Source: a virus
IMG/VR virus record: IMGVR_UViG_3300017934_000005
Span: 1 to 64,000 of that record
Reading direction: 5' to 3' (one strand)
DNA length: 64,000 nt
The notes under the pieces were generated by a model that ran no database searches, had not been told where the DNA came from, and saw only the letters and a list, made by a program, of their open reading frames with translations. Positions 151 through 54,658 of this stretch are shown one piece after another; the first letter of the stretch is position 1; each line of letters opens with the position of its first letter. Both the position numbers and the translations under genes were made by a program.

Positions 151-300
151 ATGCCGCTCATTGGTTTGTTAATTCTTGTTGGTCTGAACTTTGTAGTTTA
201 TTTCGGACTGAAGATTTGGCGGTCTTGGGAACGAGCAGAAACGTTATATCAAATCAGAACTACTTACCGAGAAGGTAGGAAGAAGATTTTGGGCGTGTAG
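151..300 (+). CDS. Small membrane protein (49 aa)
   Basis: ATG151, MPLIGLLILVGLNFVVYFGLKIW hydrophobic helix; its TAG stop lies inside the tRNA-Ala 5' end. Confidence 0.5.
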   Translation: MPLIGLLILVGLNFVVYFGLKIWRSWERAETLYQIRTTYREGRKKILGV

Positions 301-366
301 CGCAATTGGAAGAGCGTCTCGTTTGCACCGAGAAGGTCGCAGGTTCGAAGCCTGTCACGTCCACCA
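291..366 (+). tRNA. tRNA-Ala(UGC)
   Basis: Cloverleaf, anticodon loop TT-TGC-AC, encoded CCA. Confidence 0.93.
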
Positions 367-369
367 TAT

Positions 370-443
370 CCCTGCTTAGCACAATGGTAGTGCCCTTGTT
401 TGAAGCACAAGTGATGGCCGTTCGATTCGACCGGTAGGGACCA
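370..443 (+). tRNA. tRNA-Phe(GAA)
   Basis: CTTGT-TTGAAGC-ACAAG anticodon arm, TTCGATT T-loop, CCA. Confidence 0.88.
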
Positions 444-455
444 AGTGAGAATCAA

Positions 456-632
456 ATGGAAAAGAAATTTCCGTCAGTGAAAATTCATCCATATGATGTG
501 GCTACCGCACTGCTGTCGGGTAGACAGGTTCAGTTCTGTCTCTATGGTTGTGTGGCGGTAGACGGCAAGGTTTATCAAATAAGCGAAGTAGTTCCTGCTG
601 AAACTAAGAATTCCGGGGTCAAAGCCCCATAA
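456..632 (+). CDS. Hypothetical protein (58 aa)
   Basis: ATG456-TAA632, MEKKFPSVKIHPYDVATALLSG...; fills the gap between tRNA-Phe and the next gene. Confidence 0.5.
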   Translation: MEKKFPSVKIHPYDVATALLSGRQVQFCLYGCVAVDGKVYQISEVVPAETKNSGVKAP

Positions 633-702
633 TTTGTAGTTCTTTTTAGGTGGCAACTGAATCACCTGACCCCAAACTAGGATTTTTAAGGAGATAGATT
701 TT

Positions 703-1758
703 ATGGCAAGTTTAACGGCTCAGCAGGTATGGCAGACTGTTGCTGGAGTTGATTTTCAGCACTTCATTTCTGCAAATGGTGGACAGGTTGTGGCTTATGT
801 CGATAGTTCCGGCATATTTCATAGTTCTAATTCACTGATTTCCCCTCCAGGAAATTTGTATGTTGTTGGGAATGCCAACGATACTAATTTGGCTTTTCTC
901 CAGAATAAATTTGGCGGCATCACTTATGCAGATGGTAGCACTATGTTTCAATCGACTCTCCAAGGCGCGATTAATGCCTGCGTTGATCTGCGTGGAGACG
1001 TGATTCTCGTCGGCCCTCGAACGTATGTAGTTACCACACCTGTTCTTTTCAATAAGAAAGGTATAACTGTATCGGCTCTCTATAATTTTGGCGGAGGCCA
1101 GGACAACGGTGAACGATTCACAATTAATGCTGACGCAACACCGGGCATCCCTGCTGCAATTATTTCTGAGCCTTGCACGATTAGCGGATTAGGCTTTGAT
1201 AGCGCGAATACTCCTTCGGCTCCTTATCTTGGTGGAACAATTCAAATCGGCCCTGGCAGTGGTTTTGACGGTGGCAACTACGTTACCATCTCCAACTGCC
1301 GATTTGATAATTTCGGACACGCGGTCTATGGCATCGAATCTACCACTAATGACTATCTGAAAATTTTGAATTGTGATTTTGATGGGACTATTAATGGCTT
1401 TGGCAACAGCGCTAACGTCTTCGCTGGCGGAATCGCGCTCACTCAAGGTCATTATGTGACTGTTCAGGGCAACACCTTCCGTGGTTGCACTTATGCCATT
1501 GTGCATGGGACACCAAGTCCAGCAAACGCAGCACATAGTAACACAAATTTCATCTATGACAGCAATTATGTCATTTCTGATACGGCTGCTGCCGTGAAGT
1601 TTCTAAACGCCAACAACTTGGCTACCTACACCACGCAAAATGGTTTGGTATCCAATAATTGGTTCATGACAGCGACAGACACGGGTACGTTCAGTGCTAC
1701 GGTTGCCGCTCTATTGGCTGTTGGAATTGCTTGCTCGGGCAATCACTATCACGAATAA
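703..1758 (+). CDS. Right-handed beta-helix (pectin-lyase-like) virion protein
   Basis: AAGGAG SD; 'STLQGAINAC...GDVILVGPRTY' cap helix followed by Asn/Cys-ladder repeats (VTISNCRF, LKILNCDF, VTVQGNTF). Confidence 0.75.
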   Translation: MASLTAQQVWQTVAGVDFQHFISANGGQVVAYVDSSGIFHSSNSLISPPGNLYVVGNANDTNLAFLQNKFGGITYADGSTMFQSTLQGAINACVDLRGDVILVGPRTYVVTTPVLFNKKGITVSALYNFGGGQDNGERFTINADATPGIPAAIISEPCTISGLGFDSANTPSAPYLGGTIQIGPGSGFDGGNYVTISNCRFDNFGHAVYGIESTTNDYLKILNCDFDGTINGFGNSANVFAGGIALTQGHYVTVQGNTFRGCTYAIVHGTPSPANAAHSNTNFIYDSNYVISDTAAAVKFLNANNLATYTTQNGLVSNNWFMTATDTGTFSATVAALLAVGIACSGNHYHE

Positions 1759-1775
1759 AGTAATTAACCGCTTCA

Positions 1776-1804
1776 GGGGATGAGCGGAAATCATCCCCAT
1801 TTTT
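1776..1804 (+). terminator. Rho-independent terminator
   Basis: GGGGATGA/TCATCCCC stem plus T-tract after the 703-1758 gene. Confidence 0.8.
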
Positions 1805-1808
1805 CTAC

Positions 1809-1837
1809 TTGACAAGTTTCGTTTTGTCTGGTATAGT
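1809..1837 (+). promoter_or_regulatory. Sigma70-type promoter for the tRNA array
   Basis: TTGACA-17 nt-TATAGT with extended -10 TG. Confidence 0.85.
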
Positions 1838-2009
1838 AGGTCTTATACGTCACTTCCTGCCGGCGAGACGCCAAAGCTCGGCCGGGCTAAGTTGGTGGGG
1901 AGTTTCGACCGTTGTCGGCACCTTTTTGGTGTCGGCTATCACAGGTTGGTCACCCGTTCACGCGAAGGCGTCCGGTCTAGAACGTTTGCGTGGATGAATA
2001 CATTTCGAT

Positions 2010-2084
2010 TGCGGGATAGACTTCGGGGAAGTCAGAAGCCTCATAAACTTCTTTAGCCGTGTTCAACTCACGGTCCCGCTACCA
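2010..2084 (+). tRNA. tRNA-Met(CAU), initiator-like 1:72 mismatch
   Basis: CT-CAT-AA loop, U1.U72 mismatch, CCA; lacks the GGG/CCC anticodon stem. Confidence 0.8.
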
Positions 2085-2085
2085 T

Positions 2086-2161
2086 CGCTGGATAGCCAAG
2101 TGGTAAGGCGCGGGCCTCATAAACCCGTTATTCGTAGGTTTGATTCCTGCTCCAGCGACCA
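2086..2161 (+). tRNA. tRNA-Met/Ile2(CAU)
   Basis: CGCTGGA/TCCAGCG acceptor, CT-CAT-AA loop, CCA. Confidence 0.85.
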
Positions 2162-2165
2162 TTTT

Positions 2166-2239
2166 GCGATGCTGGCGTAATGGCAGCGTCCTAGCCTTCC
2201 AAGCCAGGGGTAAGGGTTCGAATCCCTTGCATCGCTCCA
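2166..2239 (+). tRNA. tRNA-Gly(UCC)
   Basis: GCG/CGC acceptor, U73, CT-TCC-AA loop, CCA. Confidence 0.9.
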
Positions 2240-2241
2240 AC

Positions 2242-2307
2242 ATGTAACGGCTGGCGATCTTGATATCGTCCATTGATCAGGAAGGAACGCCTGAGAAGTC
2301 GTTACAT
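2242..2307 (+). ncRNA. Unidentified three-way-junction RNA in the tRNA array
   Basis: ATGTAACGGCT/AGTCGTTACAT closing stem with arms GGCGAT/ATCGTC and TCAGG/CCTGA. Confidence 0.5.
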
Positions 2308-2314
2308 AAATTTT

Positions 2315-2388
2315 GCGGATATAGTTTAGTGGCAGAACTCGATCTTGCCAAGATTGAGGCACGGTTTCGATTACCGTTATCCGCTCCA
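2315..2388 (+). tRNA. tRNA-Gly(GCC)
   Basis: TT-GCC-AA loop, U73, CCA. Confidence 0.9.
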
Positions 2389-2505
2389 GTCGAGAGAACA
2401 GCGCGGCAAACGCTGGAAGCAGTGGGTTCGATTCCCACACCACGAAAGTTGATCCCTTTGCCGGGGGCTTCGAGTAGCTAGGTAAATGGCAGCTTCATCT
2501 CTCAC
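2389..2505 (+). ncRNA. Putative YrlA-like bacterial Y RNA (permuted tRNA mimic)
   Basis: Terminal helix GT[C]GAGAGA/TCTCTCAC with bulged C; GAAGC/GCTTC stem enclosing a T-arm (GTGGG-TTCGATT-CCCAC), a closed acceptor-like hairpin and a D-like arm (GCTA-GGTAAA-TGGC). Confidence 0.55.
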
Positions 2506-2509
2506 ATAT

Positions 2510-2586
2510 TGTGGTGTCGCATAATCTGGTATTGCGCTCGGCTGTTAACCGAGAGTTTGTTGGTTCGAATCCAACCGCCACAGCCA
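2510..2586 (+). tRNA. tRNA-Asn(GUU)
   Basis: CTCGG-CTGTTAA-CCGAG, G73, CCA. Confidence 0.92.
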
Positions 2587-2625
2587 CATGAGTACCGGGT
2601 GCTCGCTCACCCGGTTGGTTTTCTT

Positions 2626-2700
2626 GACCCTATAGCTCAATGCACAGAGCACCTGTCTTCGAAACAGGCTGTCCCGGTTGGAGTCCGGGTAGGGTCTCCA
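2626..2700 (+). tRNA. tRNA-Arg(UCG)
   Basis: CCTGT-CTTCGAA-ACAGG, CCA; atypical T-loop TTGGAGT. Confidence 0.85.
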
Positions 2701-2705
2701 GTTTT

Positions 2706-2783
2706 GGTTTGTTGGAGGAGTCTGGAGTCCTCGCGGTCCTGTCACGACTGAGAACACGGGTTCAAATCCCGTACAAACCGCCA
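2706..2783 (+). tRNA. tRNA-Asp(GUC)
   Basis: CGGTC-CTGTCAC-GACTG, G73, CCA. Confidence 0.92.
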
Positions 2784-2789
2784 CAAGCG

Positions 2790-2876
2790 GTGTCATTCGA
2801 AATTTCTCCGTAAAGGGTGCTCAAGTTGCGCCTGGAGATAAGCCTGATCCTTGACGGATAGGTGGGATGACATCCA
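2790..2876 (+). ncRNA. CCA-ended two-armed tRNA-like RNA
   Basis: TGTCATTC/GGATGACA stem followed by T-CCA, with two internal hairpins and no canonical D/T loops. Confidence 0.45.
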
Positions 2877-2885
2877 ACTTCTTAT

Positions 2886-2961
2886 GGTCCCGTGGTCCAA
2901 TGAACAGGGCACCGCACTTCTAAGGCGGTTGATGTCAGTTTGAGTCTGACCGGGACTACCA
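2886..2961 (+). tRNA. tRNA-Arg(UCU)
   Basis: CT-TCT-AA loop, CCA. Confidence 0.87.
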
Positions 2962-2967
2962 GTTTAT

Positions 2968-3041
2968 GCGGCTTGCATCTTAGGAGATTACTCAATAGGC
3001 CAATTGAGCAAGCGGTTCGAATCCGCCACGAGGCCGCTCCA
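2968..3041 (+). tRNA. Non-canonical tRNA-Gly-like RNA (8-nt anticodon loop TAGGCCAA)
   Basis: GCGGCTT/AGGCCGC acceptor, U73, CCA, TTCGAAT T-loop; aberrant D-arm and anticodon loop. Confidence 0.6.
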
Positions 3042-3095
3042 TTTTGTATCGTCCGAAGGCTCATCTACCTATCGGCTGGTAACGATACAATTTAT

Positions 3096-3187
3096 AGTCG
3101 GGTAGCTTAATGGTAAAGCAGCGGCTTTATACACCGCAAGCGCTAGATTGGCGCGTGATGAGAGTTCAAGTCTCTCCCCGACCACCA
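3096..3187 (+). tRNA. tRNA with UAU anticodon (Ile) and long variable arm
   Basis: TT-TAT-AC loop, V-arm GCGCTA-GAT-TGGCGC, A1.C72, CCA. Confidence 0.8.
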
Positions 3188-3190
3188 GAA

Positions 3191-3265
3191 CGGTCTATAG
3201 CTCAACGGTAGAGTACCTGGCTCTTACCCAGCGGGATGAAGGTTCAAATCCTTCTAGACCGACCA
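3191..3265 (+). tRNA. tRNA-Lys(CUU)
   Basis: CT-CTT-AC loop, CCA. Confidence 0.87.
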
Positions 3266-3268
3266 CAT

Positions 3269-3344
3269 GGCCGCATCGTCTAAGGAAAAGGACACGTCAT
3301 TCTCAGTGACGAGACTATGGGTTAGAGTCCCATTGCGGCTACCA
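3269..3344 (+). tRNA. tRNA-Glu(CUC)
   Basis: CGTCA-TTCTCAG-TGACG, CCA. Confidence 0.87.
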
Positions 3345-3348
3345 TCGT

Positions 3349-3424
3349 GGCATTGTCTTCTAGCGGCCCAGGATGCCAGCCTTTCAAGCTGGCGACGAGC
3401 GTTCAAATCGCTCCAGTGCTACCA
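3349..3424 (+). tRNA. tRNA-Glu(UUC)
   Basis: CCAGC-CTTTCAA-GCTGG, CCA. Confidence 0.9.
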
Positions 3425-3431
3425 TTTTTAT

Positions 3432-3506
3432 AGAGGATTAACTCAGCGGAAGAGTGCCACTCCTACAAAGTGGAAGCCCAGAGTTCGAATCTCTGATCCT
3501 CTACCA
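3432..3506 (+). tRNA. tRNA-Val(UAC)
   Basis: CCACT-CCTACAA-AGTGG (C33), CCA. Confidence 0.88.
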
Positions 3507-3509
3507 AAT

Positions 3510-3585
3510 GCACTCAATGCCGAAGCGAACGAGGCAATCGTCTGCAAAACGATAAAACTTGGTTTGAGTCCAAGTGGGTGCTCCA
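3510..3585 (+). tRNA. tRNA-Cys(GCA)
   Basis: ATCGT-CTGCAAA-ACGAT, U73, CCA. Confidence 0.88.
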
Positions 3586-3589
3586 GCAT

Positions 3590-3665
3590 AGGTCGGTAAG
3601 CTTAACGGTTAAACTGCTCGCCTCCAAACCGAGACTTGGGAGTTCGAATCTCCCCCGGCCTGCCA
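3590..3665 (+). tRNA. tRNA-Trp(CCA)
   Basis: CT-CCA-AA loop, G73, CCA. Confidence 0.9.
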
Positions 3666-3707
3666 ATTTTGAAAATCATTAGTCAACGACTTTAAGGAGT
3701 CACGACG

Positions 3708-4205
3708 GTGAATAAAACAGTAGATGTAAGGAGTGCTCGAATTGCACAGCAACTTGGGATGTCTCACGGGGCCGCTGCAACTCGACTTAGAAAGTTAGTT
3801 CTTTTTCGACAACTTGAGAAACATCAAGAGAATGTTTGTGTTAAATGCAGTGGGCGTATTCTCACGGCCGATGATTTGAGCCTTGAACATATTAAACCTT
3901 GGGAAGGAAGAGACGCCTCGTTATTTTGGGATTTAGAAAATGTTGCTTTTTCGCATGTAGTTTGTAATCTTCCGCACGTTCGTCACGGAGGAACGTTTCG
4001 AAGAATACAAGCTCCAGATGGAATGGCTTGGTGTTACGAACATAAAGCATTTCTTCCTATTGAGAAGTTTAACAAAAAACCAGATCGTTGGAATGGGCTT
4101 CGGTTTGCTTGTTCTGATTGTGAAATAGCATATAAAGAGCGTATGAGAAACAAACGTCAATCTTCATCATCGTCTAGTAGCTGCGATGATAGTATAGAAG
4201 GTTGA
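3708..4205 (+). CDS. HNH homing endonuclease within the tRNA array
   Basis: CxxC...LSLEHIKP...NVAFSHVVCN HNH motif plus C-terminal Zn finger; AAGGAG SD; stop overlaps tRNA-Ser. Confidence 0.8.
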   Translation: MNKTVDVRSARIAQQLGMSHGAAATRLRKLVLFRQLEKHQENVCVKCSGRILTADDLSLEHIKPWEGRDASLFWDLENVAFSHVVCNLPHVRHGGTFRRIQAPDGMAWCYEHKAFLPIEKFNKKPDRWNGLRFACSDCEIAYKERMRNKRQSSSSSSSCDDSIEG

Positions 4206-4287
4206 CGGAGCCCGGTAACGTACTCGATTGCTAATCGAGAGTCTGGTTGTGAAACCAGCGTGAGTTCAAATCTCACACCTTCTGCCA
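4196..4287 (+). tRNA. tRNA-Ser(GCU)
   Basis: CTCGA-TTGCTAA-TCGAG, long V-arm, G73, CCA. Confidence 0.92.
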
Positions 4288-4295
4288 TTTTCTGT

Positions 4296-4381
4296 GGAAG
4301 GTAGTGGGAGACGGTTCCCAACTGGTCCCGAACACCAGACCATCTGAAAGGATGACAGTTCAACTCTGTTGCCTTCCTCCA
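4296..4381 (+). tRNA. tRNA-Ser(CGA) with 8/4 cloverleaf
   Basis: 8-bp acceptor GGAAGGTA/TGCCTTCC, 4-bp T-stem ACAG/CTGT, V-arm, C33, U73, CCA. Confidence 0.78.
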
Positions 4382-4382
4382 A

Positions 4383-4459
4383 GGGTTCGTAGCTTAATAG
4401 CGCAAAGTACCGGTCTTTTAAACCGAGGGATATCAGTTCGAGTCTGATCGGACCCACCA
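4383..4459 (+). tRNA. tRNA-Lys(UUU)
   Basis: CT-TTT-AA loop, CCA. Confidence 0.9.
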
Positions 4460-4551
4460 AATTTTGAGTTTCGCCGTGACCATGGATCGGCGATAGCGCC
4501 CGCACGGAGGCAGTCGCCGTGTTGCCCGAGGCGTAAAAAGTATCGGCTTAT

Positions 4552-4626
4552 TGCCTTGTGATCCAATTGGTAGGATGCGTGGCTTTGAACCACGTCATGA
4601 AGGTTCGAGTCCTTCCGAGGCAACCA
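4552..4626 (+). tRNA. tRNA-Gln(UUG)
   Basis: CGTGG-CTTTGAA-CCACG, U1-A72, CCA. Confidence 0.9.
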
Positions 4627-4630
4627 ATAT

Positions 4631-4705
4631 TGCTCGATGATGCAACTGGTAGCATACGTGGCTCTGAACCACGGAATCTAGGTTCGAATCCTGGTCGAGC
4701 AGCCA
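4631..4705 (+). tRNA. tRNA-Gln(CUG)
   Basis: CGTGG-CTCTGAA-CCACG, U1-A72, G73, CCA. Confidence 0.92.
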
Positions 4706-41885: not shown

Positions 41886-42389
41886 TCAGCATTTCAAATC
41901 ACGAATGTCACTTGCAATCTCTTCGATTTCACAACCCAGTTTAATATTAAGTAGAGAACCGCAACGTCTGGAATGCAGTCCTTTTTTCTCAACAATCAGT
42001 GCTGCCGTTTCTAATTTTTGGTTGGAGGAGCAGGACTGCGGGAACCCGCTTCCTCCAACCCCCGCAGGTGGTTCCGGCCGGAGTTGAGAGACCCACTTTT
42101 GTCCGGGTAGGACGTAAAGCGGCGTGCTCCAGTGAAGAGACAGCGCCAGAATTACGTAATCAGGATGCAGAACGTGCTGTAATGCGTGGTCAATTTCGCC
42201 GAGTATGTAGGTTATCCTAGCATACTGGAACCGGCCGGAATATTGTTCTGTCTGCGGATCATACTCACGCAAGAACAGGAAGTCGCCGAGCTTGAAGTCG
42301 CGGTCATTCACGCGAAGCTCGAAGGTCTTTTCACCACTGATGACTCGGGTGAAGAACTGAGGCCAGCTTTTAAGTTCGTGTATTTTCAT
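41886..42389 (-). CDS. ASCH/DUF3850 domain protein
   Basis: HELKSWPQFF...SGEKTFELRVNDRDFKLGD. Confidence 0.85.
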   Translation of the reverse strand: MKIHELKSWPQFFTRVISGEKTFELRVNDRDFKLGDFLFLREYDPQTEQYSGRFQYARITYILGEIDHALQHVLHPDYVILALSLHWSTPLYVLPGQKWVSQLRPEPPAGVGGSGFPQSCSSNQKLETAALIVEKKGLHSRRCGSLLNIKLGCEIEEIASDIRDLKC

Positions 42390-43669: not shown

Positions 43670-44050
43670 TCATTCGCTCACCTTAATATCAAAGGTTCCG
43701 AACGGCAACCAGATCGCTCCGGGCATGATGTCTTGCAAATTCTTGGCTCCGCTTGGATTCAGAGAGTGGATTACGACTCGTTTCCCCACATTCGGGTCTC
43801 GTTCTACCAGATACTTCGCCACGTCCGTGCTGAAAGGCGGCATATAAGGTGCGCCTCCCAGATCGTGATCGAAGAAAAACAGATCGAAATAACCAGTACC
43901 AAGAGATTTGAAAGTCTGAATCGCCTGTTCTGGCGAATCGGTGTGACCCAACAGCCTGATTCCAAGTCGATCCTGAAACCACCTGATCCGTTCCGGGTTA
44001 TCCTCAATCAGGAAAACAGTCGCGTTCTTAGGGACAGTAATAAGTGCCAA
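43670..44050 (-). CDS. Cyclic-phosphate-processing receiver-like domain protein
   Basis: LIEDN, FDHDLG and VIHSLNPSGA motifs. Confidence 0.78.
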   Translation of the reverse strand: MALITVPKNATVFLIEDNPERIRWFQDRLGIRLLGHTDSPEQAIQTFKSLGTGYFDLFFFDHDLGGAPYMPPFSTDVAKYLVERDPNVGKRVVIHSLNPSGAKNLQDIMPGAIWLPFGTFDIKVSE

Positions 44051-45890
44051 GTTTGCCTCATATAGATCGGGCCGGCCTGGATCACTGCCAGGAGCGGAGC
44101 CCAGTTATCCGGCCGCAGGATGCCATGTTGCGGGCAGAGAAAAAATTCATAGAGAGAGTTCATCCCACAAACTCAACCTGGATGTCGTGTCGAGCAAAAA
44201 TTTCCGAGATTTTCTGTTCTCGATCCAGATCAGAAATATTCTCGTCATCATTGGTCCGATATGCCAAATCAACGTCTGCAGTTGCACAGCCTGGTTCGAG
44301 AAGCCAACCTGGGAGAGTAACATCGTTTTCTAGATGAAGTTCGTCCGCATCCTTGGCACCTGTAAGATAGTTTTCAGGTACTGGCAAGGCACTGCAGAGA
44401 ATTCCTATACAACACTGTTTTCCATCGGCTTTGCGACGGAGATAAGAAACTTCGCTGCCTTCGCCCCGAAGCCAAATTTTTCGATCAATTATGAGCTTCA
44501 TCTTTCCTCCTTGACACCAAGCACATTTGCCGCAAGTACATTTCATCAGATGCTTTCATTCACAGTTTCTGGGTTATACTCGACTTCAAACTCGATGGGG
44601 TTAACCGGATCGTCGTGATCATAATCTCGAATAAAATTGGATGCCACAGTTGGTAACGGCTGTCGTGCCCAGAAAGGTGAGTTGCTTCTATCAAGGTGTG
44701 TAGTCCAATCTAAACTAAACACCCAGGTAACCGGGATGCCGGCATCTCGCATCGCCAAAAAGACCGGGCAGTTTCCGCCATTCGCTCGGCATCCCTGGCG
44801 AATGTGCTCTTCTGTAACTTGAATTCTGATCATTGTTTGTACCTGTAAATATATTGATTCAATCCAACCCTGAGCGTGAACAAGCCTCTCCAATCCTCGG
44901 TCTGGTCCTCATCAACCTTGAGCATCTCGATCTGGACATCAGAGATGAGCCCATATGCTTTCTCCAGTTGTTTGATCTGCTCAGGTGTCGGTTTCATCTC
45001 TTGGGCTCGTCTATTCGAATTGAGTTTCCACTCACCGGCTGAAATCTCAAAGACCCGAAGCCGGCGCTCACGTCCAAGTAATAGAGTCCAAGTTCTTCGT
45101 GGAGCGTCACGTAGACTTCGCGCTCCTGGTTAGGCTTACCGACCAGGAAAGTTATACTTCTGGCCGGTACGTAGCGCCTCTTCGTGACCGGACAATTAGT
45201 TCCGGCCACTTCTCCCGTACAGGCGCGCTCTTCGTAGAACACCTTGGAAGGCGTCTGGGAGTCCTGGAATTCATTCAGGATCGTGACCGCGTTCTCACGT
45301 TCGCGGATCAAATCCTTGATGTAGTCCTGAGCCCACTTAGGAAGTTTTTCGACGTTGCCGTGTAGCTTTGCCACTGTCGGCCTTTCTGGGCTGGAGAGCC
45401 CACCGCTTCAGGATCGCGGCTGCTTTGGGTTCGAAGTAGACGCAACCAATCAGAAGACCTGGTTTGCTATAAATTGGCAGTGAGTCCGCAAGACCCCACA
45501 TAGTTTTTTCCCAAGACTCACCAGGATAATGGCCGTCAAGAGTTATGTATTTTTCTCCTCGGAAATACCTGGCAATTTGGGTCCGTTTCACGCTACGCCG
45601 AATCTTTTCGCCCGCGCCCACGAGTTGATGCAGGTAGAGAGACGTGAGACGGAAAAAATTATTGCCTGAACTAAAGTTTCTCGGAAGTTTCATTTTTTCT
45701 CCTTTTTATTCCTTGCCATCTCGTATGGCTTGAAGGTGCTCCCATTCGTACTTGGCATCTTCGAGCCATGAAACTGCCAGGTCCAGTAATTCTCTCTGGA
45801 GAGCACTGTCTACCTGCTTCATCGCTTTGATAAAGTATTTCCAGTGCGGGCTGAGCAGGTACCGAACATGACGAATTACAGGCCAGAATT

Positions 45891-46442
45891 TCATTTGCCC
45901 GCCAATACCTGAACCTTGAGAGCGTAAGCATCCGCATCAGGACCTATGCCATCGTAGTGACTGACCCAAGATCGACCGTAAGTCTTAATCATAGACGCCA
46001 TGATCTTAGTCCCAGTGTCCATGTTCTGCTCAGGATTGAAAAGATTAACCTGGGCGAAATCATACGCGGAAGCCTGAACCTTGACATTGATCTGTGTGAG
46101 TCCAACGGCACCCTTGCCGGAAATCGCCAGTGGATTGCAACTAGATTCCACGGAAACGATGGCCGCTATCATATTGGCCGGAACCTGATTGCGAATCGAG
46201 TTCTCAGCGGTCATCTCTGCAAGTTTCATATCGCCACAGCCAGATTTGCCATAGATTCGAGCCGCGTCAAAGAATGCCTTGCGAAATGTGACATTCTGAT
46301 ACGGGTCTATTACTGGAGTAACAGCAGCTTTCACACTTGATTGTGTCGTAAACGGAAACACCATCGTCTCCGCTTTTGGCTGAATTGGTGCCAAAGTTGC
46401 CGCCAGCAAAACCAAGGCTTGGAAAGTGTTGATAAGCTTCAC
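45891..46442 (-). CDS. Lytic transglycosylase (SLT) with signal peptide
   Basis: VESS, GAVGLTQI, NLFNPEQN; AGGAGG SD before GTG46442. Confidence 0.88.
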   Translation of the reverse strand: MKLINTFQALVLLAATLAPIQPKAETMVFPFTTQSSVKAAVTPVIDPYQNVTFRKAFFDAARIYGKSGCGDMKLAEMTAENSIRNQVPANMIAAIVSVESSCNPLAISGKGAVGLTQINVKVQASAYDFAQVNLFNPEQNMDTGTKIMASMIKTYGRSWVSHYDGIGPDADAYALKVQVLAGK

Positions 46443-46508
46443 GCTATCCTCCTTTGAAAAGTTAGAGCCGGTACTCCCATTAGCTTCTTCCACTTATACG
46501 GGTGCTTA

Positions 46509-46800
46509 TGGTGGATGTCGGCCGCTTCGTCGGGTCTTCCCCTCCACGGTCACGCTTCCCGGCTCCAGATGGGCTCACGTGAGCCCAGGTGCACCACATC
46601 TATTTATACAGCGACTCATCAGGAGTCAACTGTGTTCGGCACCATTCTGGCCGGCCTGATGCCCGGCTAGATGCCGCCTTTTGCCGACTATTGACCCCAC
46701 GTCTGGTCCATTCGGTCGGCATAGATTTTAGAGCCGAATCATCGTTCGGCTCAACTCAAGAATGGCGGCGAGGGGCGTCTCCGTTGGACCCCTACTTTAA
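46509..46800 (-). ncRNA. Large multi-hairpin ncRNA region ending in ...ACATCCACCA
   Basis: At least 6 GC-rich stems and no convincing ORF. Confidence 0.5.
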
Positions 46801-46840
46801 TCCGTGACGAACAATAACGAACACAGAACCACGTTAATAG

Positions 46841-46969
46841 CGCCGATGCTGGGAGTCGAACCCAGATTCCCGCTTTACAGGAGCGGTGTCTTTCCAGAGA
46901 GCCTTTTATAAGCGCCGTCTACACGGCTTACCCTTCGCTTTGCGCAGGCTCTACTTAGACCACATCGAT
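46841..46969 (-). tRNA. tRNA-like RNA, anticodon UGU (Thr), with 55-nt D-loop insert
   Basis: Intact D stem GTCT/AGAC, CCGCT-CCTGTAA-AGCGG, CTGGG-TTCGACT-CCCAG; insert at 46898-46952; 3' end G-CTA. Confidence 0.8.
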
Positions 46970-46975
46970 TACCGG

Positions 46976-47117
46976 TAGGAGCCGAGGCACATTATGTGTC
47001 CTCTTTGGCGACGATCCCAGGTGCCAAGGCCGGCAGCACCGACTCTTCACGTCACCCGGACGATTATTCCTCAGCTTGGTCGGCTTCGGCTTATCGTCCC
47101 ATCCTATATAGCTCCTA
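46976..47117 (-). ncRNA. 142-nt four-way-junction RNA
   Basis: Closing stem TAGGAGC/GCTCCTA; arms GGACGAT/ATCGTCC, GGTGACG/CGTCGCC, GAGG-CACA/TGTG-CCTC. Confidence 0.55.
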
Positions 47118-47123
47118 AATCGC

Positions 47124-47293
47124 GTCCTGGTCGGGGGTTCAACCCGCATCTCCGGTACTAGTATGCTGATTTAGAAGTTCAGCGTCTATGACCAGAATCT
47201 TTTTGTTGAGATGAATTGTTCGCGGCCCTCTACAGGGCTTACCCTTCCGCTTTTCATCTCTCAAGAGCGCAAGGCTCTTTAGACGACAGGAAT
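47124..47293 (-). ncRNA. Degenerate tRNA-like RNA with inserts in the D-loop and anticodon loop
   Basis: TCCTG/CAGGA acceptor, GTCT/AGAT D stem, CTGGT/ACCGG stem, GCGGG-TTGAACC-CCCG T-arm; carries the same insert module as 46841-46969. Confidence 0.6.
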
Positions 47294-47298
47294 ATCGT

Positions 47299-47547
47299 TT
47301 ACAGCGTAAACTTTGGCGTAGCCTTGGCTTGCTGCGGCTTCAGAGCCATCTCAAGAGCATCGATTTCCTCGCGCAGACGAGCCACGATCTTTTCCACGTG
47401 TTCTGAAAGCGGTTTGTGATGCGCAAGCTTGCCAATAAGTTGAATACTGGCAATAGCACGAGACGTGCGAGCCTGAGCCAACTGAATGAATTTTTGTTGT
47501 TTTTCGCTGATAGCGATTTCAGTAGGTGATGCGTTTCCTGGTTTCAT
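47299..47547 (-). CDS. Small basic helical protein heading the ncRNA operon
   Basis: GGAGG SD, 82 aa, directly after the promoter. Confidence 0.75.
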   Translation of the reverse strand: MKPGNASPTEIAISEKQQKFIQLAQARTSRAIASIQLIGKLAHHKPLSEHVEKIVARLREEIDALEMALKPQQAKATPKFTL

Positions 47548-47564
47548 CTATCCTCCACATAAAC

Positions 47565-47593
47565 AAAATACCAAATCTCTCGCAGGTTGTCAA
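47565..47593 (-). promoter_or_regulatory. Sigma70-type promoter
   Basis: - strand TTGACA-17-TATTTT with TGG before -10. Confidence 0.78.
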
Positions 47594-47609
47594 CACTTAT
47601 TTTCGGGAA

Positions 47610-47834
47610 TTATAGAGTTAACTCCCCTGAAATTTCCTCAGTTGTTAAAGATCGCAGTCCAGCCTCTGTCCAATAAGATCGATCAGTTGGACAGGGTGAT
47701 TGAAGAACCAGATATTGCCATTCTCCTTCCTCAAAATCTAACACTTCCATGATTCGTCCGTAAAAACCAAGATCATCGATGAACACAACTTGGTTCTTCT
47801 TAAACTTTGGTTTCGGCTGTTTTATTTTTGGCAT
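47610..47834 (-). CDS. Small SH3/KOW-like protein
   Basis: PKFKKNQVV...GRI...WQYLV pattern. Confidence 0.5.
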   Translation of the reverse strand: MPKIKQPKPKFKKNQVVFIDDLGFYGRIMEVLDFEEGEWQYLVLQSPCPTDRSYWTEAGLRSLTTEEISGELTL

Positions 47835-47900
47835 TGCAATCCCTTTCTTTTCTTGTGGGAGTCATCTATATAATTCCCTTATTTTCAACTATTTTTGGGG

Positions 47901-48275
47901 TTACCAGAGTTTACGGAAGGCTCCACGGAGGGCGAGCCGACGCATACCGGCCTCGAAGACCTTGCTAGTCTTGCATTTCTTGACTCGCGGGTGTTCCATA
48001 TGAACCATTTCGTGGAGTAGAGTCGGGAGTGCAACGCGAAGATCGCGTTTATAACGAGCATTGATGATAATCTTGGCCTCTACATTGGCTTTTACCGTGC
48101 GGCCCTTGGGGTCCACAAGATCGAAAGTAAAAGTGCGGCCCATGATATCATGCATGAGCTTGTGGTGATTGGGAACAAATCGAATACTATGGAGATGAAG
48201 TTTTCCTCCAAAGTATTTTCGATTGTATTTGTTGAAGTAAATCTTAAGACTTCTATCCGTGAGTGTTCGGATCAC
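47901..48275 (-). CDS. SprT-like HExxH metalloprotease
   Basis: FNKYNRKYFGGKL...TLLHEMVH. Confidence 0.75.
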   Translation of the reverse strand: MIRTLTDRSLKIYFNKYNRKYFGGKLHLHSIRFVPNHHKLMHDIMGRTFTFDLVDPKGRTVKANVEAKIIINARYKRDLRVALPTLLHEMVHMEHPRVKKCKTSKVFEAGMRRLALRGAFRKLW

Positions 48276-48502
48276 GCCGTCCTCCTAATTATTTGCGGTA
48301 GAAGCGTACTGAAAAAAGTAGCGAAACTTTCCCACATGGAAAGGAAGCACTGGTTTCTCAAATCCATCGATGTGGAGTATGCGCCAGATCGAACGGTATC
48401 CGATCAAGACTCAGAGCAAGGATAGTTCCTGTTTAATCTGATCTAAAATCTCTTTGTCAAAATAGACCGAATCAGAACCACAAATGTAGGTTCGATAGGG
48501 TT

Positions 48503-50766: not shown

Positions 50767-51492
50767 TTAGTCTAAGCTCCCGTCTGCAGTTCCTAGCTGC
50801 TTGTAAGACTCGATTCCCAACGCTTTCGGACAACGACAATTTGGCCCACAAATGTGATTTAACAACCGGAGCCGACGACGTTCAGCTTTTTCGACTTCTA
50901 AAGCAAGTTCTTCTTGGAACGCAAGTCTCGCCGCGACTGGACCGCGTGCCTGGTACTTATCTGGATCGGCAATGAACTCCTCCAATTCGACCGGCTTGTA
51001 ATCGGTGTACTCCACAGCAAACAAACGTTGCCACGGATTATAAAGCTTGCCGGTTCGAGTAAACCGCTCGGTTTCTGGTTCGTTCTTATGGAAACCGTGC
51101 CAGATGTTGTGAAGGTGACCGTGAATATTCAGATCACATCCGCCTGGTAGTGACTTCGCCGGCTTGTGCGTGAACCAAATGTGCCGGAAGATCATGGCAT
51201 CGCAAGCGAAGTCAAATCCGTTCTGCATCCACCAGGTACAGTTATGGTGCCAATCATGGTTGCCACGAATCAACATCTTCCGGCCTGGAAGCGAAGGATA
51301 GATCGCCTTCCATCCCGCTGGCGGGCCAATAAAAACGTCGCCGGCACAGATAACTAAGTCTTGAGGCTGAACCACGGTCTGCCAATTGTGAACGATCAGG
51401 TCCGTAAAATTCCGGGGCCGATCACAATAGGTCTCGATCTTGCTGTGATTCAGGTGTGGATCGCTAATTATCCAAGTTTTCGGTGCGCTCAT
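50767..51492 (-). CDS. Calcineurin-like metallophosphoesterase
   Basis: SDPH, GD, GNHD, TH, HGHLH. Confidence 0.9.
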   Translation of the reverse strand: MSAPKTWIISDPHLNHSKIETYCDRPRNFTDLIVHNWQTVVQPQDLVICAGDVFIGPPAGWKAIYPSLPGRKMLIRGNHDWHHNCTWWMQNGFDFACDAMIFRHIWFTHKPAKSLPGGCDLNIHGHLHNIWHGFHKNEPETERFTRTGKLYNPWQRLFAVEYTDYKPVELEEFIADPDKYQARGPVAARLAFQEELALEVEKAERRRLRLLNHICGPNCRCPKALGIESYKQLGTADGSLD

Positions 51493-53149: not shown

Positions 53150-53490
53150 TCATTTGGGACCCCACGTGAAACAACGTTTGTAAACTTCTCTGGCTTTTTG
53201 ACTTCGGCGCTTTCCAAAATAAGGCATTAGCAGAGTTAAAACCTTCACAATGTCAGATTTTTTCTTTGTACGCCAGCGAAGTGACGGGCTGTGTTTACGA
53301 TTCTTGGGTTTCCATAAACGAAGATGCCCGACTTTCACAATCCTTAAAAACCGTCTGACCACATCGCGGTCTTTCATTCCTAATGCGAGCCCGGAGTCTT
53401 GCATTTGCCAGCTATGAAAATACAACCTTCACCCTCGAACAGGCCAGCAGCCCAAGCAATTTCTCTTGTTCTAATCTTTGTACGGATCAT
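53150..53490 (-). pseudogene. Frameshifted LAGLIDADG homing endonuclease
   Basis: ATG53490 frame gives EIAWAAGLFEGEGCI and stops at 53380; the rest (LALGMKDRDVVRRF...LMPYFGKRR) continues in the -1 frame. Confidence 0.75.
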
Positions 53491-54658
53491 ACTCCTCACT
53501 ACCGGCCATTGCCACACCTAAGGGTTTCAAGGTATGGAGAATTCTGATCGTGGGTCCCATTTCACGGAGTACATCAGGCAATCGCTTGTAGCAATCTGGG
53601 CTTTCATCCAGACCGGAACCGCGAAGCTCAATACCGGATTGGGTCAGCCAAGAATTCATCATAGCATTCGTTACTCTGCCCGGCCTGGTTATCTCTCCAG
53701 TTTTCCGATTTCGTTTGCCCGCCGCTTCCATTCGACCCATCACCCTCCCTGCACCATGGACGGTAGAGTAAAAAGTGCGTTCGGACTCAAAACCGGCTTC
53801 GGCTCCTTCGATGATAACTGCCGACTCAGCCATAGTGCCTCCAACAAATCCTCTCTGTCCGGGAAACGCAGGAGTCGCACCTTTTCGTACAACATACAGG
53901 TCTTTGCCATTGTGTTTTTCGAGCCAGGAAAAATTGTGATGGTTGTGGACCTGTTCAAGAATCTGTCCTCCTATGATATTAGCCACTTTCTGGCAGACCC
54001 AATCACGGCCAGCGTAGGCGTACCATCCCGCCAACTGCATAGCTTCCTGATACTGCACCCCCAGATCAGAGCAAGCATCCAAAACCAAGGGCTCGACATC
54101 CATACCGTCTTTCGCGCCTCCAGCCTTCAGAAACCAAGTCGCGGTCTTGTGTCCAAGTCCACGGGAACCAAAGTGAACACCTACCCAGATGCGCTCAAGT
54201 TCATCCTCGAAGATGTCAACGTAGTGATTCCCCGAGCCCACGGTACCAAGCTGGTCCTGGGCTAAGTCCTTCAGGTCTTTGTTGGCTTCAAGATGCCAAA
54301 GATTCGCGTCATCGAACATAGGGTGATCAATGACACTAGCATTTTTCCGGCCAATGCCGAAACTGATTTCTTTCCAAACAGAATCCATAAGCCGGCTAAT
54401 ATTTTCACGCACGTACTGAACAGGAACATCGAGACGAACAGCTTTGTTACCGCAGCCGATGTCATACCCGACGCCAGATGGAGAGATAGCATTTTCATAA
54501 GCTAGAACGCCTCCTATTGGAACCGCATAGCCTTTGTGGTGATCGGCCATCAGTGCTGCGCCCACGACTCGAGGATCACGGGCGCATGTTATGATCTGAA
54601 CCAGTGCGCCGTGATCCATAGGCCAACCATAGACCGGGATGTTCTCAACGATGTGCAT
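53471..54658 (-). CDS. rtcB: RNA-splicing/repair ligase RtcB
   Basis: MADHHKGY, VGYDIGCG, GSGNHY, HFGSRG, HNHHN, RKGA, HGAGR, DESPDCYK. Confidence 0.95.
   Translation of the reverse strand: MHIVENIPVYGWPMDHGALVQIITCARDPRVVGAALMADHHKGYAVPIGGVLAYENAISPSGVGYDIGCGNKAVRLDVPVQYVRENISRLMDSVWKEISFGIGRKNASVIDHPMFDDANLWHLEANKDLKDLAQDQLGTVGSGNHYVDIFEDELERIWVGVHFGSRGLGHKTATWFLKAGGAKDGMDVEPLVLDACSDLGVQYQEAMQLAGWYAYAGRDWVCQKVANIIGGQILEQVHNHHNFSWLEKHNGKDLYVVRKGATPAFPGQRGFVGGTMAESAVIIEGAEAGFESERTFYSTVHGAGRVMGRMEAAGKRNRKTGEITRPGRVTNAMMNSWLTQSGIELRGSGLDESPDCYKRLPDVLREMGPTIRILHTLKPLGVAMAGSEEYDPYKD

Follow-up and report, generated by a model that had tools for sequence, protein, structure and literature searches.

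Organization of the noncoding island

We analyzed a noncoding island on the minus strand of a soil phage genome, the 96.7-kb IMG/VR record IMGVR_UViG_3300017934_000005 (G000; estimated to be 94% complete). Its first 64 kb form the window, and all positions below are window coordinates. Comparison with other phage contigs shows that the island holds a conserved and covarying set of RNAs that, by their predicted structures, derive from transfer RNAs (tRNAs), together with an invariant hairpin module of 23 nucleotides (nt).

The island lies behind a sigma-70-type promoter-like site (TTGACA-17-TATTTT with TG before the −10 element; 47565–47593, minus strand) that agrees with the consensus at 10 of 12 positions. 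It is the best such site in 45800–48400, a region that holds 8 sites compared with 2.9 expected. The first gene behind it is an open reading frame (ORF) of 82 amino acids (aa), p82 (47299–47547, minus strand), which has GGAGG 5 bases before its ATG and falls into no Pfam or PHROG family. The p82 family is small (6 clusters), and the protein is mildly basic by count (13 K/R versus 8 D/E). A noncoding gap of ~855 nt (47298–46443) then separates p82 from the gene of an SLT-domain lytic transglycosylase with a signal peptide-like N-terminus (45891–46442, minus strand; PF01464, E 2e-16; 39 homologs). The longest minus-strand ORF within the gap has 64 aa, none of the 7 internal ORFs matched PHROGs, and a tblastx comparison with relatives revealed no hidden gene remnant. 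The adjoining ORFs of this minus-strand arm are nearly contiguous. The original prediction of a promoter ahead of a basic 82-aa ORF, followed by ~790 nt without a credible ORF in an otherwise almost gap-free coding arm, was thus confirmed, and the gap proved longer than predicted. It reaches 46443, beyond the predicted end at 46509, because we placed the start of the SLT ORF most plausibly at GTG 46442 behind AAGGAGG.

tRNA bodies with hairpins in their D-loops

Unit B (46839–46970, minus strand) is a near-canonical cloverleaf, which is also its minimum free energy (MFE) fold. Its acceptor comprises 7 positions with 6 pairs and an A1xC72 mismatch, U8 is present, and the D-stem is GUCU/AGAC. 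The D-loop reads AAGU-[55-nt hairpin]-CUGGAA with G18G19 retained, and the 55-nt insert (46952–46898) carries the 23-nt module at 46936–46914. The anticodon arm CCGCU-CCUGUAA-AGCGG provides the anticodon UGU, the T-arm is CUGGG-UUCGACU-CCCAG, and the 3′ end is ...GGC-G-CU. All helices pair (7/7) and covary with those of homologs in two other phage contigs, L127 and L135. ARAGORN called no tRNA and no tmRNA in the intact region, and unit B scored 18.2 bits against the tRNA family RF00005, which is below the 29-bit gathering score. After in silico deletion of the 55-nt insert, ARAGORN at default settings called tRNA-Thr(UGU).

Unit A (47123–47293, minus strand) is a degenerate tRNA-like RNA according to its helix table. 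It has a 5-bp acceptor, a G.A pair in the T-stem, a T-loop of UUGAACC, a 9-nt anticodon loop centered on UCU, and a long variable region; its D-loop insert is 85 nt long (47278–47194) and carries the module at 47247–47225. In silico deletion of the insert from unit A still gave no ARAGORN call. Unit A is a paralog of unit B, with GUCUAA..AGAGCC and UCUGG..AGAC in common, and it scored 45.7 bits over its full length against a model built from B-like units (R1), against which ordinary tRNAs scored 31–44 bits. A cloverleaf of four helices, a GG in the D-loop and a UUCRA T-loop are found together in unit B and in its homologs in L127 and L135, and only partly in unit A. The two elements originally predicted as tRNA-like are real. 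At the level of predicted structure, units A and B are shown to be tRNA bodies in which an inserted hairpin separates D-loop positions 17 and 18.

L127 and L135 are metagenomic phage contigs, each with a B-like unit whose insert occupies the identical D-loop site. With its insert deleted in silico, the L127 unit was called tRNA-Gln(UUG) by ARAGORN. The acceptor, D-stem, insert base, outer and inner module stems, anticodon stem and T-stem pair in all three B-like units, and compensatory changes are seen in most of these helices (acceptor, insert-base, module-outer, anticodon and T stems). The acceptor 3′ strand ...GGCGCU (window 46839–46848) is kept in all three units, and their 5′ positions 1–3 are U or A, which leaves a mismatch or G.U. 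An alternative pairing partner of this 3′ strand might be CGCC or GUGCC in a T-like hairpin of the upstream unit; a search for a T-arm followed by GGCGCT returned almost only ordinary tRNAs.

In L127 and L135, a larger multi-way junction RNA precedes the B-like unit and resembles at its 3′ end unit M of the window (46974–47118, minus strand), a 145-nt predicted four-way junction between units A and B that corresponds to the multibranch RNA of 142 nt in the original prediction. In its MFE fold, unit M is closed by an 8-bp stem followed by CCGGU. It holds the position of "unit 1" of L135 and L127, has the matching 3′ end (stem plus A-CC-GGU), and shares with its counterparts a covarying hairpin (GGGACGAU/AUCGUCC versus GGGAUGA/UCAUCUC versus GGAACGA/UCGUUUC). 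Since an M-like RNA precedes the B-like unit in both contigs, we regard [M-like][B-like] as a conserved cassette. In L127 and L135, the cassette lacks unit A and the 3′ part of the island, is flanked by protein genes, and has neither its own promoter nor its own terminator. L127 is truly related to the window phage, with 45–72% protein identity and synteny to 77–83 kb of G000, and it carries the cassette at another genomic location than the array in the window. The 3′ ends of unit M (46974–46981) and of the L127 and L135 counterparts consist of a 7–8-bp stem followed by A-CC-GGU, a tail close to CCA from which trimming and completion could yield ACCA. A scan of viral sequences for this 3′-end pattern gave 0 matches.

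The cloverleaf features of unit B raise the question of whether unit B, and perhaps unit A, are decoding tRNAs (Thr-UGU and Arg-UCU), in which the insert is either tolerated or cut out by some nuclease and the ends sealed by the RtcB or RNA ligase of the phage. The tRNA call upon insert removal favors such a role, as do U8, A14, G18G19, the UUCGA of the T-loop and A37, all of which unit B retains. RtcB (53471–54658, minus strand) and an RNA ligase (PF09414; 50163–50765, minus strand) are encoded 3–7 kb from the island and might serve in splicing, and unexplained introns occur in the tRNAs of Lak megaphages (PMC6784885). However, C33 replaces the near-universal U33 in two of the three B-like units (unit B and L135), positions 1–3 of the acceptor contain mismatched or wobble pairs, including the 1-72 pair, and none of the B-like units has a CCA. 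All 20 ordinary tRNA genes of the phage, which lie at 291–4705 and thus apart from the island, encode CCA (NCCA ends) and have fully paired acceptor stems. Units A, B and M differ from them in this respect. Unit B lacks both U33 and an encoded CCA, and its positions 1 and 72 do not pair. The anticodon also differs among the homologs (UGU, CGU and UUG), and unit A is too degenerate for a tRNA call. Because the B-like units lack CCA, have imperfect acceptor positions 1–3, carry C33 in two of three cases and vary in anticodon, ordinary decoding is disfavored. As for splicing, G000 encodes neither the splicing endonuclease EndA (PF01974) nor a CCA-adding enzyme, and by inspection there is no bulge-helix-bulge motif, the insert being a plain hairpin that rises from the loop. 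A group I intron would have at least 200 nt, an anticodon-loop position and a group I core, whereas the inserts have 48–85 nt and lie in the D-loop; Intron_gpI gave no match over 46300–47700 at E up to 10. No close parent of unit B was found among the tRNAs of the phage itself. Moreover, the module also occurs on the tips of terminator-like hairpins, where splicing is meaningless. We consider a decoding role, with or without splicing, to be unlikely.

A 23-nt module shared by unrelated contigs

The inserts of units A and B both carry the 23-nt module GAAGGGUAAGCC-N-UGUAGA-N'-GGC. At the DNA level, the two copies in the window are exact (GAAGGGTAAGCC-N-TGTAGA-N'-GGC at 47247–47225 and 46936–46914), with 0 expected by chance. 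The module forms the tip of the insert hairpin and comprises a 9-nt bulge (GAAGGGUAA), a 5-bp stem (GCC-N-U/A-N'-GGC) and a GUAG loop. Scans with the 23-mer found 6 viral loci, 12 metagenome loci and 1 genome locus, and a further copy with one wobble change was found in a second metagenome-assembled genome (MAG) of the same order as the genome locus. A looser module pattern produced chance matches only, and a search of full-text literature for the module sequence returned only primer coincidences.

We aligned 14 independent copies without gaps: the two of the window and those in 12 further contigs from phages, metagenomes or bacteria. In this alignment, 87.9% of the cells are paired, compared with 63% in shuffles, and covariation reaches 0.61 compared with 0.16, a value attained by 0 of 500 shuffles; slid controls stay at or below 0.12. 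The outer pairs change on both sides in 8 of 8 cases. For the inner N-N' pair, G-C, U-A and C-G all occur, besides a single G.U wobble. No variation at all is seen in the 9-nt bulge, in the GUAG loop or in the U-A closing pair. Of the three G-C pairs beside the bulge, two are likewise constant, and a G.U wobble replaces the third in a single copy. Such an invariant bulge and loop suggest that the module is specifically recognized or has a fixed tertiary fold, and is not just a stable hairpin.

The module occurs in several RNA contexts. Four copies lie in tRNA D-loops (units A and B, L127 and L135). In L003, L130 and L136, it forms the tips of hairpins that follow genes and are succeeded by U-runs, as in terminators, and similar intergenic hairpins carry it in L004, L009, L134 and L137. 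The genes that flank these stand-alone modules showed no informative association. In L126, the module belongs to a junction of a stem, a T-arm and the module within a genuine tRNA array. This 101-nt unit (reverse strand, ~1364–1464 of the reversed locus) combines a long stem, the T-arm GUCGG-UUCGACU-CCGAC and the 23-nt module; it begins 7 nt past the CCA of a tRNA and has the appearance of a Y-RNA-like three-way junction. In L002, the module is part of a ~170-nt long-stem RNA just upstream of the terminase gene. The RNA at L002:3040–3300 is closed by the long stem GGCAACACGGCG.../...CGCCGUGUUGCC upstream of the terminase large-subunit gene, and the same sequence is present in L005, L006, L129 and L132.

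The carriers of the module include two bacterial MAGs, one of which is titled Candidatus Acidoferrum, a genus of the Acidobacteriota. The copy in this MAG adjoins a gene homologous to one in the complete module-bearing phage G306 and therefore probably lies in a prophage. In 301 genomes of the order of this MAG, searched with up to 2 mismatches, only 2 contained the module, each in a single copy. A covariance model of the module found no conserved host copy in 5 genomes of the order, the one borderline match being coding sequence, and gave no match in the related phages G302–G305. We therefore rejected the idea that the module mimics a host housekeeping RNA. Mimicry of a CRISPR repeat, by which the module would act as an RNA anti-CRISPR, or of another host RNA segment is also extremely improbable. 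The lead was that the module hairpin GCCGUGUAGACGGC presumably shares GCCGUGUAG with type I-F repeats. However, the 41 candidate stretches obtained from the genomes of 185,579 species contained no tandem arrays of the hairpin, and CRISPR-repeat mimicry was rejected on this ground. The scarcity of the module in host genomes of the order likewise argues against mimicry of another host RNA.

Because the contexts of the module are numerous and unrelated, and a pre-existing helix carries it at the tip in every case, we also considered a small mobile hairpin that inserts into D-loops and other loops; the units would then be decayed tRNA genes without an RNA function. The degeneracy of unit A and the absence of the array from the relatives G302–G305 are in line with this explanation. 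However, the same D-loop site is occupied in three phages, and both the tRNA helices and the insert stems have since changed by compensatory substitutions, which argues for selection on the fold. Moreover, the 23-nt core is kept in the 14 copies while the flanks vary freely, and neither target-site duplications nor a shared transposase was found. Pseudogenes are thus a rather improbable explanation of the units.

Fold stability, the 3′ segment and known RNA families

The original prediction named folding energy and Rfam matches as checks. The minus strand of an 801-nt stretch of the island folds with z = −3.6, and 0 of 20 dinucleotide shuffles were as stable, so the expected advantage over shuffled controls was observed. 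The plus strand of the same stretch gives z = −4.2, and among 150-nt windows only 46550–46800 and 47150–47300 stand out; folding energy alone would be thin evidence for RNA function here. Under Rfam 15 at the gathering threshold, only ordinary tRNAs matched in the whole window. At E up to 10 over 46300–47700, the only match was the sub-threshold tRNA match on unit B (E 1.3). GOLLD, ROOL, OLE, HEARO, tmRNA and RNase P, the families put forward earlier, gave no match and are ruled out as identities as far as the Rfam models see. The island has no match in GenBank phages by blastn. Neither the hairpin module nor the cluster matches any described RNA family, and the module is apparently undescribed.

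Downstream of unit B lies an unplaced structured segment of ~270 nt (46567–46838, minus strand), whose MFE fold contains a predicted three-way junction (46769–46673) and a perfect hairpin (46587–46570). It has the best local z-scores (−3 to −4.5) and no homolog in anything searched; of the multi-stem domain of ~200 nt predicted here, the thermodynamic support stands, and nothing beyond it was found. Directly after unit B, the direct repeat UGUUCGU-UAU-UGUUCGU lies within a CGUG/CACG hairpin (window 46800–46830, minus strand). The island ends with a long terminal hairpin with the arms GAGCCGG/CCGGCUC (46566–46465), followed by UAACUUUUC and the Shine-Dalgarno sequence of the SLT gene (feature 46456–46566, minus strand). 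The "ACCA" that had been taken as the end of a tRNA-like unit lies inside this hairpin, and by inspection it has neither a matching 5′ strand nor a T-arm; we rejected it as a tRNA terminus.

Whether the island is one giant RNA or a processed polycistron had been left undecided in the original prediction. A single GOLLD- or ROOL-like particle with p82 as its partner would agree with the continuous structured sequence, the absence of an intrinsic minus-strand terminator inside the region and the z-score of the whole region. However, no Rfam model of such RNAs matches, the units are closed separately and recur in other combinations, p82 homologs occur without the RNA, and cassettes occur without p82. 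A giant RNA of this kind is thus very improbable, and the processed polycistron is the part of the prediction that we retain. Processing into separate RNAs is suggested by the helix that closes every unit individually and by the recurrence of the units in different arrangements. Taken together, the island is most likely a dedicated noncoding RNA locus behind a promoter-like site that would yield separate RNAs after cutting.

Origin of the array and its relation to p82

For the absence of the array, our comparison set comprised L190 and L191, which were found via an SLT profile, and the related phages G302–G305. In L190 and L191, p82 homologs with 34% identity lie upstream of SLT genes with 59% identity, and the interval in which the array sits in the window is occupied by coding DNA instead of RNA genes. 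The L190 and L191 genomes as a whole showed no similarity to the array, and the array is also absent from G302–G305. Single-protein searches of viral contigs with p82 and SLT revealed no close relatives; closer protein homologs do exist (65–77% identity for SLT and 70–90% for p82), and the array comparison rests on the DNA of L190 and L191. The L127 and L135 cassettes have no p82 homolog beside them. Since p82 homologs lack the array in L190 and L191 and the cassettes in L127 and L135 lack p82, the suggestion that p82 may be the partner of the RNA is not supported.

Directly after the p82 stop codon, L190 and L191 have a hairpin whose arms, U-rich tail and Shine-Dalgarno sequence resemble those of the window hairpin at 46566–46465. 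BLAST support for a shared terminal hairpin is weak (a 9-mer at E 0.04 plus collinear 6–7-mers). We consider it probable that the array is a ~730-nt insertion into the 3′ untranslated region of p82, and this would fit co-transcription from the promoter at 47593.

Putative function of the island

Overall, we favor, with moderate confidence, the interpretation of the island as a cluster of RNA genes derived from tRNAs, in which units A and B are insert-retaining tRNA mimics that display the module. Most likely, the island is transcribed together with p82 from the promoter at 47593, and the cluster would sit between the p82 stop codon and the hairpin that directly follows p82 in related phages. 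Host tRNA-processing enzymes may then cut the transcript into stable A, M and B RNAs and perhaps an RNA from the 3′ segment. Our best guess is that the mature RNA retains the insert, which would protrude from the elbow of the tRNA. The tRNA body might provide stability and processing, and the module might serve as a portable recognition element for an RNA-binding factor of the host or the phage. The units would thereby act as nondecoding tRNA mimics, that is, as decoys, sponges or tags in a conflict over RNA damage and repair. A role of this kind would be linked to genes of the same minus-strand arm, which encodes, in addition to RtcB and the RNA ligase, a metallophosphoesterase (50767–51492) and a cREC_REC cyclic-phosphate receiver domain (43670–44050); a DUF3850/ASCH protein is encoded at 41886–42389.

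Several points weigh against this interpretation. The comparative evidence comes from few sequences, namely three B-like units (unit B, L127 and L135) and three M-like units, one of which is truncated. For the ~270-nt 3′ segment, folding energy is the single line of evidence. The main tRNA set of the phage lacks Thr, Leu, Pro, His, Tyr and Cys, and ACA accounts for 25% of its Thr codons, so that unit B as a decoding tRNA would fill a gap in a phage without another tRNA-Thr. An engineered Spinach-tRNA construct with the insertion at the same D-loop site (C16/G18) left E. coli tRNA-Tyr undetectable (PMC5397188), a failure that would fit either removal of the insert in the phage RNAs or a special stability of the module. 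RtcB is absent from the complete module-bearing phages G306 and G307. Across module contigs, no shared partner protein was found beyond Endonuclease VII in 4 of ~10. G000 encodes three Endonuclease VII (PF02945) paralogs past the window (75347–75892, 82460–82858 and 91125–91589), and L127, L134 and G308 have homologs, whereas the complete phages G306 and G307 have none. Given that no protein family is shared and that G306 and G307 lack RtcB, the partner of the module, if there is one, is more likely a host factor.

We speculate further that, in soil bacteria, one specific factor of the host or the phage reads the 23-nt hairpin as a portable RNA tag, with Acidobacteriota as the candidate host phylum. 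The tRNA bodies, T-arm junctions and terminator hairpins would be carriers onto which phages graft this tag, either as decoys against tRNA- or RNA-targeting defense or as marks that direct their own RNAs to protection or repair. This extension is possible and is offered only tentatively. If true, the reading of a portable tag would make the locus a natural "aptamer on a tRNA scaffold" system.

Relation to known systems

Phage tRNA clusters are known to contain interspersed small stable RNAs, such as T4 species 1 and 2, rnaC and rnaD. These resemble the island in that non-tRNA or tRNA-like RNAs are co-transcribed and processed like tRNAs, and G000 also has an array of 20 tRNAs. In contrast, the cluster described here lies apart from the tRNA array and contains enlarged cloverleaves, two of which carry a conserved inserted module. 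Noncanonical tRNA introns of archaea and red algae include D-loop positions and require a bulge-helix-bulge and EndA. The D-loop insertion is alike, but in the island there is no visible bulge-helix-bulge, and G000 lacks EndA.

The Lak tRNA genes carry "enigmatic introns" that were predicted with tRNAscan in eukaryote mode (PMC6784885), and in both systems phage tRNA genes are interrupted by conserved insertions of unexplained fate. Here, however, the insertion is a plain D-loop hairpin, and its module is common to unrelated phages and present outside tRNAs too. A Ro/TROVE platform with a tRNA-like partner has been mentioned (PMC7824862). Similar to YrlA-type Y RNAs, which are found with Ro60/Rsr in rtcB-linked operons, the island provides tRNA-mimicking noncoding RNA in an RNA-repair neighborhood, and the L126 copy has a Y-like three-way junction. 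However, Ro60/TROVE (PF05731) is absent from G000, control genomes being positive in the same search, and the units have no Rfam match, keep the normal rather than the permuted cloverleaf order and lack a bulged Ro-binding stem. By the tests made here, the island is a member of none of these three groups, the stable RNAs of phage clusters, the Lak introns and the YrlA-type mimics. With GOLLD and ROOL, it shares a large structured noncoding region in a tRNA-carrying phage, but no covariance model matches, and the island is modular rather than one fold.

The engineered Spinach-tRNA likewise displays a folded RNA module on a tRNA body. Its D-loop version was undetectable in E. coli, whereas three phages have conserved a natural fusion at the D-loop, which may show how stable tRNA fusions can be built. 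Phage tRNA genes are now viewed as weapons against tRNA-cleaving host defenses (PMC10264068, PMC11555353). The locus would go further, with tRNA bodies as carriers of a small invariant RNA module that is common to unrelated soil phages and is also found on mRNA terminator hairpins. The module is short enough to be synthesized, so its partner could be searched for directly by pull-down. Unexplained insertions in tRNA genes are being noted in more and more phages, and this locus adds soil phages to them.

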